From positions 19,001 to 51,068 of the forward strand of contig MHGT01000007.1 of assembly GCA_001805695.1 (NCBI GenBank): DNA of 32,068 nt, in the 5' to 3' direction. This DNA comes from Omnitrophica WOR_2 bacterium RIFCSPHIGHO2_02_FULL_67_20 (GTDB lineage Bacteria > Omnitrophota > Gorgyraeia > Aquiviventales > Aquiviventaceae). Under the pieces are notes generated by a model, which did not search any database, was not told the DNA's origin, and worked only from the letters and a program-made list of their open reading frames with translations. A program made the position numbers and the translations under genes. Below are positions 6,417 through 32,068 of this stretch, in pieces (position 1 is the stretch's first letter; each line of letters begins with the position of its first letter).

Positions 6417-8710
<2,294 letters not shown>

Positions 8711-25542: not shown

Positions 25543-26316
25543 ATGGCGCCGCCTCTGCATTTCACTGAGCAGGGCACTGGAACCGCGCTGCTGCTCCTGC
25601 ACGCGTTCCCGCTGTCGCACGCGATGTGGAGCGGGGAGCTCGCGCGCTTTGCGACGATGCGGCGCGTGATCACGCCTGATTTGCCGGGGTTCGGCCGCTC
25701 GCCGCGGCTCACCACACCGTCCATTCCCGCCATGGCCCGGGCGGTGGCCGCGCTGCTGGATGGGCTGGGCATCCGCGAGCCGGTGATGCTGGGCGGCCTC
25801 TCCATGGGCGGCTACGTCGCGCTCGAGTTCTTCCGGCAGTTTCCCGATCGGGTGAAGGCGCTGGGGCTCTTCTCCACGCGGGCCGCGCCAGACTCGCCGG
25901 AGCAGCGCGCGGGGCGCCTGCAGTTGGCCGGCCAGCTCGCGCGGGACGGCATCGAGGCACTGATGCAGACCGCCGTTCCGAAATTACTGGGGCCAACAAC
26001 GAGGGCCCGCCGGCCCGCGGTGGCGGAGCAGGTCGAGCGGGCCGCCCGGGCGGCGAGCGTGGACGGTGTTGCCGATGCGCTGCGCGCCATGGCCGCGCGC
26101 GCGGATTCGCGGCCCCTGCTCGCCGCCATTGGGTGTCCGACGCTGGTCGTGGCCGGCGGCGAGGACCGAGTGATTCCCGTTGCTGAGAGCGAAGCGATGG
26201 CCAAGGCGATTCCCGGTGCTCAGCTCGCAGTGATCCCGGAGGCCGGCCATGTGGTCAACCTCGAGCAGCCGGATGCGTTTCAGGGCATTGTGGAAGCCTG
26301 GATCCGTCACAATTGA
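25543..26316 (+). CDS. Alpha/beta fold hydrolase
   Basis: LHAFP, PDLPGFG.S, GLSMGG nucleophile elbow, GGED, AGHVVNLE. Confidence 0.95.
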   Translation: MAPPLHFTEQGTGTALLLLHAFPLSHAMWSGELARFATMRRVITPDLPGFGRSPRLTTPSIPAMARAVAALLDGLGIREPVMLGGLSMGGYVALEFFRQFPDRVKALGLFSTRAAPDSPEQRAGRLQLAGQLARDGIEALMQTAVPKLLGPTTRARRPAVAEQVERAARAASVDGVADALRAMAARADSRPLLAAIGCPTLVVAGGEDRVIPVAESEAMAKAIPGAQLAVIPEAGHVVNLEQPDAFQGIVEAWIRHN

Positions 26317-26323
26317 AAGGAAA

Positions 26324-26351
26324 GGTGCCAGCTACCGCGGTGCCTGGCACC
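26324..26351. repeat. GC-rich hairpin (REP-like) at the core/accessory boundary
   Basis: GGTGCCAG ... CTGGCACC perfect 8-bp arms; no U-tract on the + strand. Confidence 0.55.
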
Positions 26352-26390
26352 GGGCTGAAGAAGATAAACGGCTGTGGCGAATAAGACCTC

Positions 26391-26419
26391 TTGCCAAGTG
26401 ATAACAGATATGTTATCAT
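26391..26419 (+). promoter_or_regulatory. Sigma70 promoter with overlapping palindromic operator
   Basis: TTGCCA, 17 bp, TATCAT; TGATAACA-gata-TGTTATCA at 26399-26418. Confidence 0.75.
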
Positions 26420-26437
26420 TCTATCGGAGTCAGATCA

Positions 26438-26570
26438 GTGCTGGAAGTCCTGTACTACCCTGAAGGGAGCCGCGTGGCTGGTTCACAGCGTTGAGAAGAA
26501 GAGCGCGAAAACGCCAAGGGATGATCTTGAGCTCGCAAGAAGGAGGCTAAAGGAGGTGACGGCTCGATGA
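26438..26570 (+). pseudogene. Internally deleted RelE/HigB (Gp49-like) toxin
   Basis: N-terminal MLEVLYYPEG joined out of frame to WLVHSVEKKSAKTPRDDLELARRRLKEVTAR*; stop overlaps the antitoxin ATG. Confidence 0.8.
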
Positions 26571-26869
26571 GAGGCTTCGACAAGCACTTGCATGAACTAC
26601 TGGAAGCGCACCCGGAAGCGGCATTGGAGCACGCCAAGCTGTTCGCCGAGCTTCCGCTGCCGACGCAGCTGGCCATCATGCGCCGCCGAAGGAAGCTGTC
26701 TCAACGCGCCTTGGCAAGAAAGCTGAGGGTGCGTCAGCCTCATGTGGCTCGGACCGAAAGCGTCCGTCACGACCCACGCATCTCCTCGGTTGTCCGGGCC
26801 GCTAAAGCGGTTCGCTGCCATGTTCTGCTCGTACCGGATGAAGAGCTAAAACGGATCGCGGTGGCGTAA
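26567..26869 (+). CDS. XRE/HTH antitoxin (HigA-like)
   Basis: RRRRKLSQRALARKL.VRQPHVAR.E; AAGGAGGT RBS; follows the toxin remnant. Confidence 0.88.
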   Translation: MRGFDKHLHELLEAHPEAALEHAKLFAELPLPTQLAIMRRRRKLSQRALARKLRVRQPHVARTESVRHDPRISSVVRAAKAVRCHVLLVPDEELKRIAVA

Positions 26870-26885
26870 CAGTCAGGCGTTATTC

Positions 26886-26918
26886 ACGGCCCGTCGGATG
26901 ACCGGCGGGCCGTTTTTG
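26886..26918 (+). terminator. Intrinsic terminator
   Basis: ACGGCCCGTCGG-atga-CCGGCGGGCCGT followed by TTTT. Confidence 0.8.
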
Positions 26919-27133
26919 TGTCCGTGAGAAGCAGGTAGGAGTAAAATAAACTGGTTACTTGTGCCCGGCGCAAGATGGCGCTGAAGCTGCTGAAGGAACT
27001 GAATGGGTATGAATAAGTGTTTCAGCGCGAGCAGGAAATGGTAATGTGGCATCGGAAGTTCCCTGGAATTCCTTGATCATTCCTAAGGTGGTGCCGGATA
27101 AGCAGTGGTCCGTGACGACCCGAGAGCAGTCTG

Positions 27134-27757
27134 ATGAGCAACCAAAGAGCCAATAGCGGAGAGCATGATGCTTGGAGAGTGCTCTTGCCGGTCATCATTG
27201 GTGGAGTGCTCGCAACAGTTGGCGGCATCGTAAGCCAGTATTGTGCGTCGCAGTTTCAATTCTCGACTGAAGCTCGCATCGAGAAGATTCAGGAACAGCG
27301 CCAGGTCTTTGCGCGGCTCATGGGGCGGAAGTTTGCCACCAAGCAACTGCATGTCTCTCGTTACGAGGCGCTCGTCTTTTCTGATTATCACGAGGCGCGT
27401 TGGAAGCGCGCTGGCTCGCCGAACGATTCTCTCGACCTGCAAGAGGCACAGCGCTGGATGCACCGTAGCGAGGATCTTGTTTTCGAGATCGTAAGGAACA
27501 ACCAAATCCTCTTTGAAGACATCGGAGTCGCCCGTGCGCTGTTCCCCAATACGCCGCGCCTTCGCGAATTGGTGGATCGGATTTACAGCTTCAAGGCCCT
27601 GAAAATGTCACAACCTCCAGATGATGCTTCGTTGGAGGAGTTGGTCCAGTGGAAGGACGAGTCTGTTCGGCAGCTACAGTCGGTGGTTGATCGCGAATAC
27701 GGAGAACCAATCGATGAGCTTCTGGTCTACCTCTCGCAGCAGCTTCCGATGGATTGA
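27134..27757 (+). CDS. Hypothetical protein with one N-terminal TM helix
   Basis: 207-aa ORF with hydrophobic VLLPVIIGGVLATVGGIVS followed by a helical soluble region; family not recognised. Confidence 0.75.
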   Translation: MSNQRANSGEHDAWRVLLPVIIGGVLATVGGIVSQYCASQFQFSTEARIEKIQEQRQVFARLMGRKFATKQLHVSRYEALVFSDYHEARWKRAGSPNDSLDLQEAQRWMHRSEDLVFEIVRNNQILFEDIGVARALFPNTPRLRELVDRIYSFKALKMSQPPDDASLEELVQWKDESVRQLQSVVDREYGEPIDELLVYLSQQLPMD

Positions 27758-27842
27758 GTTCGGTGGCGGAGCTCTCGAAAGATTTGCCTAACCGAGGTAT
27801 ACACCCGGAACGGAATTCCGGTGACACAATACTATTTCCGAA

Positions 27843-27878
27843 ATGAATAAGCCTCTCGCGGTCGTTACGTACGGATGT
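27843..27878 (+). pseudogene. miaB: miaB-like 5' fragment 1 (MNKPLAVVTYGC)
   Basis: ATG AAT AAG CCT CTC GCG GTC GTT ACG TAC GGA TGT, then unrelated sequence to TAA 27920; same Met-to-TYG spacing as the other fragments. Confidence 0.6.
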
Positions 27879-27921
27879 TCCCTCGACTTGCTCTGCGGCC
27901 GCTTCGCGGCCGTCAAATAAA

Positions 27922-28086
27922 ATGTGGATGAGGGGTCCGGTTGTTCCCTCGTCGCGGATCTCGGCCGTCGGCCTCGACCGCTCCTCAGTTTGGGAGGAAC
28001 ACCTTAGTAATATGTGGATGTGGGGTCCGGTTGTTGCCTCGTCGGAGATCTCCGCCTTCGGCGTCGACTCCTCCTCGGCATCAACC
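27922..28086. repeat. Two 65-bp direct repeats (period 90) folding into covarying hairpins
   Basis: 27922-27986 versus 28012-28076: 56/65 identical by my count, with 6 of the 9 differences forming three compensatory pairs. Confidence 0.85.
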
Positions 28087-28150
28087 ATAGGTCTGGAGTG
28101 AGGATGGTCCTCAGATGAGTAAGAGCATTTTTCTCCAGACCTATGGTTGA
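28081..28150. repeat. Perfect 18-bp inverted repeat
   Basis: TCAACCATAGGTCTGGAG (28081-98) / CTCCAGACCTATGGTTGA (28133-50). Confidence 0.95.
28115..28150 (+). pseudogene. miaB: miaB-like 5' fragment 2 (MSKSIFLQTYG*)
   Basis: Aligns without gaps to MTKSIHLITYGC; GAGGA RBS at 28100-04; TGA at the Cys position. Confidence 0.75.
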
Positions 28151-28294
28151 CCATATGTGTCTAAAAGGGGGATTCCTGATAGGGAGATTTGGTGGAGGAG
28201 ACCAAGAAGGCTTGGTAGCGCTTCCTTAGTGCTTCAGACGGTGGCTGAGGGGTTGCAGGTGGCGCTGGCCTCGACGTAACCAGGGAGCCGTAAA

Positions 28295-28675
28295 ATGGTG
28301 GTCAACGAGGCGTTCGGCTGGTTGTGGATTGTGCTGGGTTTCGCTTCAGGAACGCTCCTGGGGCTGAAGTTCCAGAGCGAAAGCTGGCTGGGAGGCTACG
28401 GTTCTCACAGACGGCGACTGATTCGCCTGGGCCACATTTCCTTCCTGGGACTTGGATTTTTGAACATCCTGTTCGCACATAGTCTTCCGCAACTTCGCCT
28501 GAGCCAGGCATGGTTATCGCTGGCTTCGTGGAGTTTGATGCTCGGAGGTGTGACCATGCCAGTGTGCTGTGGCTTGATGGCATGGCGGAAGAATCTGCAA
28601 CCAATTTTCGCCATCCCAGTCGTTGCCCTTCTCATCGGTGCGTTCCTGGTGCTGATCGGTATGGTGCAGCCATGA
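28295..28675 (+). CDS. Hypothetical 4-TM membrane protein
   Basis: Four hydrophobic segments, LGGYGS.RRRLIRLGH motif, GGAG RBS, ATGA coupling to the next gene. Confidence 0.85.
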   Translation: MVVNEAFGWLWIVLGFASGTLLGLKFQSESWLGGYGSHRRRLIRLGHISFLGLGFLNILFAHSLPQLRLSQAWLSLASWSLMLGGVTMPVCCGLMAWRKNLQPIFAIPVVALLIGAFLVLIGMVQP

Positions 28676-30063
28676 AAGTCGGCTTCATCGCCATGAGTGG
28701 TGTGCGAGCGTACAACGAGGAACTCACGCGAATTGGGCTGACGCTTCCTGGTTTTGTCGAACGCAGCCAGGTCATTGCTTCATTGCCGAGCCTTTCACTT
28801 CTGACATTGGCGGCGATGACTCCACCGCCAATCGAGGTTGAGTATCGTGAGATCAAAGATTTGCGAAACACACCACCCCTTCCTACCGATTACGATCTGG
28901 TCGCCATCTCGTCCTTCTCTGCCCAAATCTACGAAGCCTACCAAGTCGCCGATGAGTATCGCAGACAGGGAATCCCTGTGGTTCTTGGCGGGCTTCATGT
29001 CAGCGTATTACCTGAAGAAGCGAAAACACATTGTACAAGTGTGGTAGTTGGCGAAGGTGAAATATCATGGGGGAAGGTTGTTGCCGATTTCGTTGCAGGG
29101 AAGCTCCAAGACTATTACACCCCTGCTGGGGAGTCGTACAACTTGGCAGACGCTCCGATTCCCCGTTACGAATTGCTAGACATCGAGCAATACAACCGGC
29201 TGACAGTCCAAACCAGTAGAGGCTGTCCTCACCGCTGCGATTTCTGCGCTAGTTCCATTCTGTTGACCCCCAAGTACAAGGTCAAACCTGTTGAACAGGT
29301 CATCGCCGAGATTCGAAGGATCAAGGCGATCTGGAAGCATCCATTCATCGAGTTCGCTGACGACAACAGCTTTGTAATTCGAGAGTATTACAAACGCCTG
29401 CTGCGTGCGCTCAAAGATGAAGGGCTTCGTTGGTTTACGGAAGCAGACATCTCCGTTGCCGAGGATGAGGGGTTGCTGCATCTGATGCGTGAAAGCGGCT
29501 GTCGGCAGGTGCTCATCGGCTTGGAAAGTCCCACACCGCAGGGCTTGGATGGCGTCGAGCAGCGGCGAAACTGGAAACTGAAGAAACTGCCGGACTACGA
29601 GTCAGCGATTCGTACCATTCAAGGGCATGGGATCACTGTGGATGGATGCTTCATCTTGGGACTGGATGGAGATGGTGAAGACATCTTTGATCGCGTCTAC
29701 GAGTTTGTCGAGAATACAGGATTGTATGAAGTGCAACTGACCGTACTGACGCCATTTCCTGGCACGCCGCTCTATCACCGCCTGAGACAGGAAGGGCGTT
29801 TACTCGAAGATCGAGCCTGGCACAAATGCACGCTCTTTGATGTGAATTACGTGCCCAAGCAGATGTCGGTTGAAAGGTTGGAACGTGGATTGGTGGAGCT
29901 ATCAAGAAGGATTTACGATAGTGCGTTTATTCGTGATCGAAGGAGACGCTTTTTCAAGACGCTGCGGAGAAGTGGAGTGGAGTGGTTGCAAAAAATGGAG
30001 GAGGGATGGGGCGATGAGTATCGGGACGATCAAGAAGCTGTTTGTGATCGCCGCGCTGTATGA
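28672..30063 (+). CDS. B12-binding domain radical SAM protein
   Basis: PSLSLLTLAAMTP, VVLGGLH, VVGEGE, QTSRGCPHRCDFC (CxxxCxxC), FADDN, IGLES, FILGLDGD, LTPFPGTPL. Confidence 0.95.
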   Translation: MKVGFIAMSGVRAYNEELTRIGLTLPGFVERSQVIASLPSLSLLTLAAMTPPPIEVEYREIKDLRNTPPLPTDYDLVAISSFSAQIYEAYQVADEYRRQGIPVVLGGLHVSVLPEEAKTHCTSVVVGEGEISWGKVVADFVAGKLQDYYTPAGESYNLADAPIPRYELLDIEQYNRLTVQTSRGCPHRCDFCASSILLTPKYKVKPVEQVIAEIRRIKAIWKHPFIEFADDNSFVIREYYKRLLRALKDEGLRWFTEADISVAEDEGLLHLMRESGCRQVLIGLESPTPQGLDGVEQRRNWKLKKLPDYESAIRTIQGHGITVDGCFILGLDGDGEDIFDRVYEFVENTGLYEVQLTVLTPFPGTPLYHRLRQEGRLLEDRAWHKCTLFDVNYVPKQMSVERLERGLVELSRRIYDSAFIRDRRRRFFKTLRRSGVEWLQKMEEGWGDEYRDDQEAVCDRRAV

Positions 30064-30394
30064 TTTTGTTCTGGGTGTAGTCTTTTTGGTGGCTTGGAAG
30101 CAGGTCTACAACTATTTCGGGGTGACGCTCCCGAACCACGATGGCTACGTGCAATTTGGGGCGGCACTGGTGGCAATCTTCGGGGTTGGGTTTTGGCTTG
30201 TGGCGCAGAACCCTGAGCGCAACCGTGACATCATCAAAATGGGTGTCCTGTTGAAAATCGCATATTCGGGCGTAGTGCTTGGACACCACTTCTTCGGGAT
30301 GGTTCCAGGCGTGTGGGTTCCGTTTGCCTGGTGCGATCTTGTTTTTCTAGCGTTATTCGTAGCGGCACTGCGTGCCCTGCCATCAAGGGCGTAG
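30014..30394 (+). CDS. Hypothetical 4-TM membrane protein
   Basis: LF.IAALYD..LG, P.RNRDII.MG...K, W.DL.F..LF; 50-nt overlap with the radical SAM gene. Confidence 0.82.
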   Translation: MSIGTIKKLFVIAALYDFVLGVVFLVAWKQVYNYFGVTLPNHDGYVQFGAALVAIFGVGFWLVAQNPERNRDIIKMGVLLKIAYSGVVLGHHFFGMVPGVWVPFAWCDLVFLALFVAALRALPSRA

Positions 30395-30443
30395 GATAGC
30401 AGAGACTTCTTGCGTGACATAATTGCCCGCTGATCATATGAAT

Positions 30444-30650
30444 ATGACGAAATCCATACATTTAATCACTTACGGCTGTCAGATGAATGAAAGAGATTCC
30501 GAGGAGGTGCTCGGGATGCTGACGGCGCAGGGCTACGAGATCGCCGGGCAGCCGGAAGACGCGGACGTCATCCTCCTGAACACCTGCTCGGTACGAGCCC
30601 ATGCCGAGGAGCGGGCGTTTGGGAAGCTTTCGGGTAGAGAATATTGTTGA
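30444..30650 (+). pseudogene. miaB: miaB 5' fragment 3 (truncated UPF0004 domain, about 62 MiaB-like residues)
   Basis: TYGCQMNERDSE, ADVILLNTCSVR..AEERAFGKL, then SGREYC*; no radical SAM domain follows. Confidence 0.93.
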
Positions 30651-30682
30651 CATACAATCCATTTTCGTAGAATATTGACAGT
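30638..30682 (+). promoter_or_regulatory. Candidate promoter of the AAA ATPase gene
   Basis: AT-rich; TTGACA (30647-52) and TAGAAT (30668-73, 15-bp spacing is suboptimal); AGAATATTG repeated twice; no RBS, so possibly near-leaderless. Confidence 0.45.
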
Positions 30683-31867
30683 ATGGAATACATCACTAGA
30701 CTGCTGGAACAGAAAATCCGACGGGCCCTCCATCGCAATAGAAGCATCCTGCTCTTCGGGGCCCGGCAGACCGGCAAGACCACGCTGATCAGCCGCTTTC
30801 ACGCGGATCTGGTCATCACCCTCGTGAGGCCGGACATCCGTCAGCGGTATGAAAAGTCACCACAGCTACTGGCCGGTGAGGTGGAGGCGCTCGCCCCCAC
30901 AGCCGCGAACACACGTCCGCTGGTCGTTGTCGATGAAGTGCAAAAAGTGCCAACGTTGTTGGATGTGGTGCAGGACCTCATTGACCGGGGCCGCGCCAAT
31001 TTTGTGCTGACGGGGTCCAGCGCTCGAAAACTTCGCCGCGGCGCCGTCGTCAATCTCCTGCCGGGGCGCGTGGCCACGTTCAGGTTAGATCCGTTCAGTT
31101 TGCGGGAAGTGCCCGCACAGGACGTGCATGAGCGCCTGCTGTACGGGTCGTTGCCCGGCATGCTGGCGGTGCCGGATCGTGCAGATCGAGAAACCGATTT
31201 GGAATCGTATGTGACGACGTATCTGGAAGAAGAGGTGCGGGCAGAGGCGCTTGTGCGGAATGTGGGCGATTTTGCCAGGTTTCTTGAGCTGGCCGCATCC
31301 GAATCCGGCAACATCGTCAACTTGAGAAAATTGTCTCAGGAGATCGGCGTGTCCCATACGACGATCGGGGCCTACTACCAAATTCTCGAAGACTGCCTGA
31401 TCGCCGAGCGGATTGAGCCCGTGACCCACAGCAAGACGAGGAAGAAACTGACCAAATCCGAAAAATACCTGTTCTTTGATTTGGGGGTCCGGCGTCTGGC
31501 AGCCCGAGAAGGCACGAAACTGCCGCGCGATACCTTCGGGCGGCTGTTTGAGCAATTCGTTGGTCTGGAACTGGTTCGGTGCGCCCATGCTGCGCACCGA
31601 ACCCTCGCCATCCGCTTTTGGCGTGATCCGGACGGCCCGGAAGTGGATTGGGTCATCGACGATGAGGGGGCCTATGCCCCCGTGGAAGTGAAATGGACGG
31701 ACCATCCTCGATCCGGCGACATCCGCCATCTGGAAGTGTTCCTCGACGAATATCCCTCGGCCAGGGCCGGGTACATCGTGTGTCACGTGCCGCGTAAAAC
31801 CAAGCTGAGCCGCCGCGTCGTCGCGCTGCCCTGGCAAGCCATTGACGAGCTGATCCCTGCGTCATGA
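30683..31867 (+). CDS. AAA_14 / DUF4143 ATP-binding protein with C-terminal nuclease-like motif
   Basis: GARQTGKTT, VVVDEVQK, LTGSSARKL, NLLPGR, YGSLP, KYLFFDLGV, EVDWV...VEVK. Confidence 0.93.
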   Translation: MEYITRLLEQKIRRALHRNRSILLFGARQTGKTTLISRFHADLVITLVRPDIRQRYEKSPQLLAGEVEALAPTAANTRPLVVVDEVQKVPTLLDVVQDLIDRGRANFVLTGSSARKLRRGAVVNLLPGRVATFRLDPFSLREVPAQDVHERLLYGSLPGMLAVPDRADRETDLESYVTTYLEEEVRAEALVRNVGDFARFLELAASESGNIVNLRKLSQEIGVSHTTIGAYYQILEDCLIAERIEPVTHSKTRKKLTKSEKYLFFDLGVRRLAAREGTKLPRDTFGRLFEQFVGLELVRCAHAAHRTLAIRFWRDPDGPEVDWVIDDEGAYAPVEVKWTDHPRSGDIRHLEVFLDEYPSARAGYIVCHVPRKTKLSRRVVALPWQAIDELIPAS

Positions 31868-31899
31868 CCCGCGCGATCTTTCTTCAAACCTATGGGTGA
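31864..31899 (+). pseudogene. miaB: miaB-like 5' fragment 4 (MTRAIFLQTYG*)
   Basis: ATGA overlap with the ATPase stop; IFLQTYG identical to fragment 2 with only synonymous changes; TGA at the Cys position. Confidence 0.78.
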
Positions 31900-32068
31900 C
31901 CATAGTGGTGCAATACCTGGACTCCCCGCACTATCCAGACAGGCTGTTGCGGAGGACGCCAACCAAGTGTTCGAGGCGCTGGCCGATGGGTTCCGCCTTG
32001 TGCTGGCAGGAATAGAGTTGAAGTGATCATGGTAGTGACCCGCTCACTGCAGATGCTCACGGCAGTCG

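Follow-up and report, generated by a model that had tools for sequence, protein, structure and literature searches.

Stacked hairpin modules at the start of miaB in an Omnitrophota genome as candidate site-specific insertion units

The window analysed here is a 32,068-nucleotide (nt) stretch of the genome of Omnitrophica WOR_2 bacterium RIFCSPHIGHO2_02_FULL_67_20 (C7:19001-51068, in an assembly of 845 kb, 42 contigs and 73% completeness), and it holds an array of short hairpin-bearing modules and larger gene cassettes joined to pieces of the tRNA-modification gene miaB. All new DNA at this locus begins exactly after the GGNTG of the miaB TYGC codons, and the stack sits directly behind that pentamer, in which the Gly codon of the motif TYGCQMN is followed by the first two bases of its Cys codon. 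The right end of every unit is its own miaB-like start, again closing in GGNTG. The target is thus restored at the right-hand end, and the units come to lie head to tail; in the window, modules of 66, 90 and 116 nt are followed by kilobase-sized cassettes. The reading that we favour, with a probability of roughly one half, is that the repeats are cargo-free miniature modules that insert site-specifically, put a new 5' end in place of that of miaB and act as folded strands. A dedicated insertion guided by structure is suggested by several features: a single nucleotide is used by many unrelated left ends, a half-site, RCCRTAK, is shared among them, one of the module's two hairpins ends exactly at the junction, loops are conserved, stems covary and length is invariant.

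A module with two hairpins

The full form of the module is represented by 14 distinct copies, six from five genomes and eight from metagenome contigs, and its length is an identical 116 nt in 13 of them. Behind GGNTG come a T, a lower stem (TSCC), an unpaired TCGTC and hairpin A, which is made up of 4 bp, one bulged A, 2 bp, a 2x2 loop, 4 bp and a 3-nt tip. Hairpin A is followed by an unpaired TCCTC, by the GGSA that closes the lower stem, by a further T and by a 17-nt arm, CANCCRTARGTYTGSAG. A 36-nt loop carrying GAGGA and ATG then leads to CTSCARACNTAYGGNTG, which ends at the next junction. The arm pairs with the module's own last 17 nt to form hairpin B, and these 17 nt double as codons 6-11 and the first two Cys-codon bases of a surrogate miaB start of 11 codons.

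An initial annotation of this DNA had reported two hairpin repeats and a third repeat start. All of the sequences that it named are present in the window, and a repeat search recovers the two repeats at 27918-27986 and 28008-28076 (69 nt, 86% identity, spacing 90), with the third start, at 27869, being a partial one of 17 nt. Tandem Repeats Finder reports no array in the window because there are only two diverged copies. Set in the frame of the junctions, copy 1 is a short form of 90 nt (27944..28033, plus strand, 70.8 bits in the covariance model described below), with hairpin A at 27954-27981, without the inverted arm and with the right end ..ATGTGGATGTGGGGTCCGGTTG|. Copy 2 is a full form of 116 nt (28034..28149, plus strand, 73.7 bits), in which the lower stem lies at 28035-28038 / 28077-28080, hairpin A at 28044-28071 and the inverted arm at 28082-28098. 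Next come GAGGA (28100-28104), which is read as a Shine-Dalgarno site, and an ATG (28115-28117) overlapped by the TGA of the upstream frame (28116-28118). The surrogate of copy 2 reads MSKSIFLQTYG, and its last 17 nt (28133-28149) pair with the inverted arm; a perfect inverted repeat of 18 nt is found at 28081-28098 / 28133-28150. Ahead of copy 1 lies a relic module of 66 nt (27878..27943, plus strand), whose left end, TTCCCTCGAC, has the hairpin CGGCCGC-ttc-GCGGCCG and whose right end is ..ATGTGGATGAGGGGTCCGGTTG|; homologous units are present in C16, G023, G019 and M235. The ACCATAG at 28084, the ACCATAT at 28150 and the ACCATAG at 31899, reported earlier as a shared motif, are all present as well.

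The folds of single copies as RNA are weak evidence (z -1.4, -0.4 and -1.9), and the minus strand of copy 2 alone reaches -4.2. As DNA, the whole 116-nt unit folds far more stably than shuffled sequences on both strands (z -5.45 on the plus strand, -5.63 on the minus strand), and the hairpin at 28075-28160 folds at z -7.0. The structure of the module is beyond chance once relatives are added. Across 11 copies, 91.8% of the cells of hairpin A are paired versus 75.1% in shuffles (0 of 500 shuffles as high), six of its ten pairs are compensatory, and slid partners are 24-45% paired. Across the 14 full units, hairpin A is 99.3% paired, again with six of ten pairs compensatory, and hairpin B 98.3%, versus 35-42% with partners slid by 1-3 columns; these pairing counts include related copies and hence overstate independence. 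In hairpin B both partners have changed in five of the 17 pairs, each time at a synonymous position of a surrogate codon. The loops of hairpin A are near-invariant and its stems variable. Tandem copies within one array differ by ~15-20%. The same unit plan occurs in a genome of another family, G037, with very different arms (CTTCGCACTTTTGGTTG versus CAACCAAAAGCTGCGAAG) that still pair, the unit folding at z -4.0. Folding of the tandem junction of G014 is no better than that of shuffles (z -0.3 and -1.5).

These comparisons bear out the proposal that structure is conserved over sequence, which had been based on the two window copies: the three compensatory pairs noted between them are real (alignment columns 17/42, 18/41 and 25/35), and covariation persists as copies are added, with pairing and compensatory changes across both the 11 and the 14 copies. 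The outer stems that had been drawn around the hairpins fared less well. The stem proposed for copy 1 (GGTTGTTCCCTC / GAGGAACACC) finds no counterpart there in the other four short-form copies aligned (C16_b, C33, G014_a and G008_a); that of copy 2 stands in part, with column 8/51 covarying and column 3/56 pairing in only 7 of 14 copies. The edge of hairpin B is sharp. The N of GGNTG pairs with the arm of its own unit in 13 of 14 copies and with the left-flank GGNTG in 7 of 14, which indicates that the sequence of the inverted arm goes with the right end of its own module rather than with the left flank. Beyond the junction pairing stops, the next three column pairs being paired in 3, 1 and 0 of the 14 copies.

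One junction and many replacement starts

The DNA that joins at GGNTG falls into several left-end families. First, the hairpin type, TTSCCTCG, follows three different right ends, namely MKKRL..TYG, ..FLQTYG and the short ..GTGGAAGGGTCNTCCGGNTG, which has only YGGNTG in common with miaB; it always does so at GGNTG|. Second, ACCATAG.. with a conserved small open reading frame (ORF) is found at window position 31899 and in G019, G007, G008, G275, G011 and G049. Third, RCCGTATGT.. followed by GCCGTTGGCGCGAGATGGCGCTGAAGCTGCTGAAG is found in G019:C15, G049:C9 and G023:C129, and the module of this family is also present in the window at ~26960 and in C33, there behind a hairpin. Fourth, ACCGTATTATG.. 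is found in G014:C56. There are also unrelated left ends (GCAGGCGG, TCAGGCAG and TGGCGAAT) and left ends that are miaB pieces of variable length. The second, third and fourth families are unrelated cassettes that share their first 7 nt, RCCRTAK, and then diverge. Since RCCRTAK is the inverted complement of TAYGG, the junction reads TAYGG-NTGR-CCRTA. Hairpin-type units hold the CCRTA half-site too, displaced by the hairpin A block of ~50 nt. The extended junction pattern, CARACNTAYGGNTGRCCRTA, has six sites in 4 of 401 class genomes versus none for a reversed-pattern control, and the short palindrome occurs in the source genome at two junctions only, versus 3-7 times in shuffles. An Xer/dif-type target was considered and rejected, the core TAYGG-NTGR-CCRTA being found in the source genome only at two junctions.

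Uninterrupted forms of the target are available for comparison. The intact miaB of the source genome lies on contig C36, reads MNRAIFLQTYGC-QMNARDSE.., has the domains UPF0004, Radical_SAM and TRAM and carries the Atlas name MiaB. Uninterrupted starts are also found in G009 (MKKRLAVITYGC-QMN), G012 (MNKTVFLQTYGC-QMN), G044 and G045. The start in G009, which is fused to an intact miaB, is of the same kind as the native-like start at 27843 in the window, MNKPLAVVTYG(C), which runs into TCCCTCGAC.. instead. Likewise, the start at 28115 (MSKSIFLQTYG) runs into ACCATATG.., and that at 31866 (MTRAIFLQTYG) into ACCATAGTGG... The stacking process is plainest in G014, where a native-type start is followed by three small units, each ending in GGNTG, and then by an intact miaB starting MSKTIFLQTYGC. 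The earlier idea that the repeats are empty mini-cassettes at miaB junctions is supported: each strong covariance-model match lies directly 3' of GGNTG in an array.

On C36, miaB is preceded by what is probably a second copy of the AAA_14/DUF4143 ATPase gene found in the window, and the first 130 nt of C36 equal window positions 31769-31898 except for one base. The ATPase region has a depth of 20.8 in run X2, versus 10.5-11.4 in the rest of the window. Because of this roughly double depth and the identity with C36, the ATPase gene (30683-31898 including the overlapping miaB start, ATGA) is probably present twice with its surrogate start, once leading into a cassette and once into intact miaB.

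How might miaB survive such insertions? The reading frame coming in from the preceding GGN TGY is open for 28-31 codons in all 14 full units, and the upstream stop falls within -2 to +5 nt of the surrogate start. There are 11 cases of ATGA, one of TAATG, one of a stop 5 nt inside the new ORF and one of GTGA with a GTG start; GAGGA stands 10-12 nt upstream of the surrogate start. This layout looks like translational coupling, in which ribosomes would be passed from the old start to the new one and miaB would be kept expressed from the old signals.

A mechanism can be proposed on the favoured reading. The module would be inserted, now or formerly, as a folded single strand. Read as a circle, it could form a 17-bp stem, a T.T mismatch, a 4-bp stem, a 5x5 internal loop and hairpin A, making up one long imperfect hairpin, the foot of which would be the crossover point. 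The recombinase would be supplied in trans. Larger cassettes use the same GGNTG point, many of them with the half-site RCCRTAK, which makes a palindromic junction. Each insertion would bring a replacement miaB start coupled in translation to the old start.

Distribution, enzymes and competing explanations

The modules are confined to arrays. A BLAST search and a motif scan find hairpin units in the source genome only on C7 (3 starts), C16 (2) and C33 (1); two more motif matches fall within coding sequence and seem due to chance. With the covariance model, R1, there are 4-5 matches in the source genome, none of them outside arrays. Within the family it matches 5 of 35 genomes, namely the source (G000), G014 (3 matches), G008 (2), G023 (3) and G044 (weakly), and within the class 4 of 151 (the source, G008, G037 and, weakly, G148). 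A 24-nt pattern picks up 14 metagenome loci, with the same context in 12 and chance matches in coding DNA in the other two; of the 12, two are contigs of the source, two are mutually identical and two have the same sequence around the unit. In genus g9, G008 has modules and G045 has none, its plain miaB start standing behind a toxin-antitoxin pair. The non-coding hairpin part of the module is 81-92% identical between genera, versus 72-81% for the adjoining 600 nt of miaB. Modules are also found away from any miaB, on C16, on C33 and ahead of cargo in the window. A BLAST search of plasmid and phage collections with the repeats gave no match, and G009 and the source genome have no conserved synteny in the region preceding miaB. 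Two wider occurrences were rejected. First, the 16-mer CCTCGTCGSRGATCTC was found at 120 or more loci of a genome contig collection, none of the matches listed having junction context, and is put down to chance in GC-rich genomes. Second, the palindromic junction was found at 60 loci in viral contigs, none with a miaB-like context.

The larger cassettes carry toxin-antitoxin and defence genes. The families of array ORFs in the window and nine relatives are HTH/Xre, Gp49-like, ParE/Phd, Fic, zeta-like AAA_33, two ThsB-TIR proteins, PD-(D/E)XK, methyltransferase, WYL, DUF2204, GIY-YIG, AAA_14/DUF4143 and B12-binding radical SAM.

Several observations weigh against the idea of site-specific modules. 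First, no enzyme is in sight. Recombinase or transposase families are found in none of 21 window ORFs and in none of 84 ORFs of the relatives scanned, the source genome, at 73% completeness, has no tyrosine recombinase at all, and the hairpin-bearing genomes have no serine recombinases. PF00589 has two matches in most family genomes, and two each in G014, G008 and G023, none of them on the array contig; these matches are presumed to be XerC/D-like. Second, contigs of four sequencing runs contain no joint that removes a hairpin module, X4 being without cover over 27844-28229. Two joints that do occur have other explanations: 31898>30495 (16 letters between) is the intact-miaB copy on C36, and 26345>31891 (31 letters between, 30-letter sides, 3 runs) is a related array in another arrangement and not a deletion. 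Third, the module is carried by only about six host lineages, and related copies are not independent. Fourth, in C16, C33 and M238 hairpin A is followed by unrelated cargo at differing points, most cargo cassettes are without an intact hairpin, and some miaB fragments are broken at variable points (30626, L008 and L225); the truncated hairpins at cargo borders and the variable breaks suggest that illegitimate joins also occur. Fifth, the stems of the 14 copies contain G.U pairs in 3-4 cells and A.C mismatches in 3, about equal numbers that favour neither strand and neither type of molecule. The helix that ends exactly at the junction points to a role as DNA, and the conserved stop/start overlap points to a role as RNA. 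Sixth, short homology (CARACNTAYGGNTG) and a long miaB anchor could alone reproduce recurrent exact junctions.

This last point is the core of an explanation that we regard as possible, if the less probable one: sequential displacement without a dedicated recombinase, the hairpins being an RNA leader for coupling or for some other control of miaB. Donor DNA made up of cargo, a miaB start and miaB would recombine by homology inside miaB, and the left join would be made by short homology or illegitimately at ..ACNTAYGGNTG. Each event would move the previous start upstream as a relic, and the 116-nt unit would spread through the adjoining homology anchor. The lack of a recombinase in the arrays speaks for this, as do the varying break points (30626, and the truncated hairpins of C16, C33 and M238). 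The stop/start overlap and open frame of all 14 copies are features at the level of RNA, and decay is seen in modules that lie away from the intact gene, hairpin A having a broken outer stem in G014_a and G008_a. However, a left end of 7 nt, ACCRTAK, is common to three or more unrelated cassette families, which random illegitimate joins do not predict, and hairpin B ends exactly at the junction. The short-form right end has only YGGNTG in common with miaB, yet the hairpin left end follows it at the same nucleotide. Moreover, hairpin A combines conserved loops with covarying stems and has no evident RNA role: Rfam 15 has no match at E up to 1 on either strand of 26000-32068, 27500-28600 contains no terminator-like site (a GC-rich stem with a T run), and a promoter and terminator scan is empty. 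Minimal mobile elements of Neisseria can be grouped with arrays formed by sequential displacement. Homology-facilitated illegitimate recombination and displaced orphan arrays have both been described (PMC3240628, PMC5361080). The orphan immunity arrays of the type VI secretion system (PMC5361080) resemble the miaB arrays in that gene-end relics are left as modules arrive and no dedicated recombinase is involved; they differ in that they are not known to have a conserved hairpin module, a palindromic junction half-site or a stop/start coupling device.

A further explanation is a purely cis-regulatory, structured leader of miaB, duplicated by chance and immobile. The module does lie directly ahead of intact miaB in G014, G023:C3, M227 and M230, and its conservation at least equals that of miaB itself. 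This explanation is nevertheless unlikely: the module is missing from 30 of 35 family genomes, whose miaB starts are ordinary, it occurs away from miaB (C16, C33 and ahead of the window cargo), old starts are left as relics at the same nucleotide, and tandem copies in one array have diverged to the extent given above.

Elements moved by HUH transposases offer another model. Repetitive extragenic palindromic (REP) sequences with their RAYT transposases and miniature elements of the IS200/IS605 group are genome-wide, with tens to hundreds of copies, and elements derived from them insert 3' of a short target motif. The miaB modules are comparable in being short, hairpin-bearing, non-coding units inserted beside a fixed short motif. 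A derived element of this kind, a palindrome-associated transposable element moved by a Y1 transposase, would co-occur with that transposase and have subterminal hairpins at both ends; hairpins are present at both ends of the module. Such an element would account for small size and for insertion always 3' of one pentamer. Y1_Tnp is found in the source genome (on C42) and in 25 of the 35 family genomes altogether, and a decayed copy lies just upstream of the miaB of G009. All the same, we hold this explanation to be very unlikely. The modules are not dispersed but restricted to one kind of locus, with 4-5 copies in the source genome, all in three arrays, so the REP-like element that the initial annotation had entertained, with matches scattered over the genome, is not what is found. 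Nor are the modules linked to Y1 genes: the 25 of 35 genomes with Y1 do not track the 5 of 35 with modules, G014 has three modules and no Y1 match, and there is no covariance-model match beside the Y1 gene on C42. Y2 transposases are found in G011 only. The association with integron integrase or HUH genes that had been suggested earlier is not supported on these counts or by the tyrosine recombinases, none of which lies on a contig bearing a hairpin module.

The likeness to integrons is closer in form than in detail. According to one account (PMC5027507), attC sites have R boxes 5'-RYYYAAC-3' / 5'-GTTRRRY-3' with crossover between A and C of AAC. The R box is followed by a central spacer of 5-6 unpaired nt and by an L box that has extrahelical bases; the tip is variable, and the whole site measures 57-141 bp. 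The module has a comparable architecture of a lower stem, a 5x5 unpaired region, an upper stem with a bulged A and a 3-nt tip. It is likewise an imperfect hairpin: there are two paired boxes, the unpaired spacers measure 5 nt, one base is bulged, the tip is short and variable, and the junction at the foot reads G|TT. As in integrons, units stack head to tail at one re-created site, structure is kept while sequence drifts, and the cargo is rich in toxin-antitoxin genes. Could these be true attC sites, a cluster of attC sites lacking an integron integrase (CALIN) and served by an IntI? This is scarcely credible. TIGR02249, the integron integrase, has no match in the source genome, the one genome run, and the other hairpin-bearing genomes have two tyrosine recombinase matches each, none on the array contig; with hairpin-bearing genomes 73-92% complete, absence of IntI is not proven. 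RYYYAAC / GTTRRRY are not found, the junction being G|TT(S)CCT on the plus strand and GGSAA|CANCC on the minus strand, neither of which fits the 7-mers. Seen on the gene strand, the hairpin is 3' of G|TT, across the crossover from its place in attC, a mirrored geometry. The joins of other cassettes are at G|A or G|G, and most cargo cassettes have no intact hairpin. Finally, the target is inside a coding sequence: the equivalent of attI is a codon pair in miaB, and each unit must bring a new gene start.

A looser version, which we consider doubtful, is an integron-like collector without an integrase of its own. It would use the Gly-Cys codon pair in miaB as its site and take up cassettes as folded single strands with a host enzyme or a new class of enzyme, the 116-nt module being its minimal unit. 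The crossover would fall at the foot of the cassette's hairpin, and every cassette would mend the split gene with a surrogate start whose translation is coupled to that of the old one.

Two other known systems come close to the favoured reading, that of miniature site-specific modules. The first is that of islands which replace the 5' end of a gene, as SXT does in prfC. The miaB modules share with such islands a target at the 5' end of a tRNA-modification gene and the supply of a new 5' end by the element. According to one study, dusA-specific islands integrate in the 5' end of the gene and replace it, and the MiaB-like gene rimO is a target in Polaromonas (PMC4482086). Such islands have a tyrosine integrase of their own and measure tens of kilobases, unlike the units at miaB, which are as small as 66-116 nt, stacked, without an integrase and provided with conserved hairpins. 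The second system is that of elements that exploit host Xer recombinases. The modules have no recombinase of their own, a hairpin formed from inverted repeats, and a re-created target that permits tandem pile-up. CTX-type elements, or integrative mobile elements exploiting Xer (IMEX), have these properties too, in that they use host Xer and their inverted repeats fold the single strand into a hairpin that imitates the target. In both the attP hairpin of CTX phage and the attC of integrons, the foot of the hairpin is the crossover. The CTX-type target is the chromosomal dif site, which XerC/XerD recognise, in contrast to a site inside the miaB coding sequence.

Full-text searches, which did not extend to subscription journals, returned no title or abstract opening that describes this miaB arrangement. 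It would be filed among site-specific insertions that replace the 5' end of a gene.

What would be the implications? First, if the modules are mobile, they are among the smallest known site-specific insertion units that keep the target gene working. Second, on the same condition, the locus would be a hotspot where small-genome bacteria of groundwater and soil store genes for toxin-antitoxin systems and defence, such as Fic, zeta-like, ThsB-TIR and ParE/Phd, with no visible recombinase. Third, the locus provides a concrete case for how cassettes gather outside integrons and for how insertion into a coding sequence is made harmless without splicing. Fourth, there are clear handles for biochemistry in the precise junction, the constant length of 116 nt and the arms that covary. 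Should displacement prove the true explanation, the locus would remain a clear case of how the 5' end of a gene is displaced step by step, with a coupling leader that is conserved.

The rest of the array

The array, all of it on the plus strand, begins at 26317..26376, directly 3' of the stop codon of an alpha/beta-hydrolase gene. From ~26300 as far as the end of the contig, GC content is down from ~0.68 to 0.55, the drop setting in at about the array start. The segment contains a hairpin, GGTGCCAG..CTGGCACC, and a decayed miaB-like start ending ..ACGGCTG|, and it is homologous to DNA upstream of MKKRL-type miaB starts in C33, G014 and G019. A hairpin of the form AAGGTGCC(N)..GGCA(CC) is kept upstream of MKKRL-type starts in the window (26327-26353, directly behind the hydrolase stop), C33, G014, G019, G008 and several metagenome loci.

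Next comes cargo, one cassette or more, at 26377..27877. According to Pfam and a junction scan, it holds a toxin-antitoxin pair (a Gp49-like fragment and an HTH_31 gene), a conserved module, GGCGCAAGATGGCGCTGAAGCTGCTGAAG (~26960-27017), and a family-less ORF of 207 amino acids (aa). Its right end is the native-like miaB start, with ATG at 27843 and the TG ending at 27877. The conserved module, RCCGTATGTGCCGTTGGCGCGAGATGGCGCTGAAGCTGCTGAAG.., is met again where cassettes of several genera begin on the left (window ~26950-27017, C33:830-755, L017, L027 and L241). Palindromic, operator-like sites lie ahead of the helix-turn-helix genes of toxin-antitoxin cassettes, namely TGATAACAGATATGTTATCA at window 26398-26417 and TGATAATGTTATCA..TGATAACATTG in C16 (L001, ~8190-8230). 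In G019 (L019:7478-7771), a gene for a 96-aa GIY-YIG domain protein is the last cargo gene before intact miaB.

Behind the three small modules lies a cargo cassette of 3.75 kb (28150..31898), with the left end ACCATATG and, on the right, the surrogate MTRAIFLQTYG|. It contains a 126-aa ORF, a B12-binding radical SAM gene (28510-30063), a 174-aa ORF, a miaB 5' fragment (30445-30626) and the AAA_14/DUF4143 ATPase gene (30683-31867). The miaB fragment reads MTKSIHLITYGCQMN..AFGK, its start being MTKSIHLITYGCQMNERDSEE.., and is then broken. It matches the intact copy at 92% identity over 159 nt, and the break comes after about codon 61, not at GGNTG. The break, at 30626, coincides with the promoter region of the ATPase gene (TTGACA..TAGAAT).

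The next cassette (31899..32068) opens with ACCATAGTGG.. and is cut by the end of the contig at 32068. It has a conserved 44-aa ORF (31892-32026) that starts at the ATG inside TATGG. Small ORFs of this kind, 31-44 aa long (..PGL..AVAEDANQVFEALAEGFRLVLAG*), occur at ACCATAG-type left ends in the window, L019, L022, L018, L239, L242 and L244; they start at the ATG inside TATGG, vary synonymously between genomes and have no Pfam match. Identification of the 44-aa ORF as a HicB fragment was dropped, BLASTP against a HicB-like ORF of G007 giving E 0.34 and Pfam nothing.

Remains of other elements were seen near miaB-like starts. On C33 (L002:1025-2068), an IS110-family transposase gene (DEDD_Tnp_IS110 and Transposase_20) with 17-bp flanking inverted repeats, ATGAAAACAGGCGACCC, sits between a GGTGCC..GGCACC hairpin and a decayed MKKR-type miaB start, adjoining a hairpin module. 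At G009:C48:6758-6991 (L010/L025), a decayed IS200-like Y1 transposase gene and a hairpin that follows it lie directly upstream of an uninterrupted miaB. On contig G016:C84 (L023, 3353 nt), a miaB-like start (MNKRLTVMTDGY..) runs in frame into a truncated tyrosine recombinase, and the contig also has a 520-aa ORF and what we take, by eye, to be a tmRNA 3' fragment and an ORF resembling an NYN-type nuclease domain. Its first and last 99 nt are identical, which points to a circular or tandem unit.

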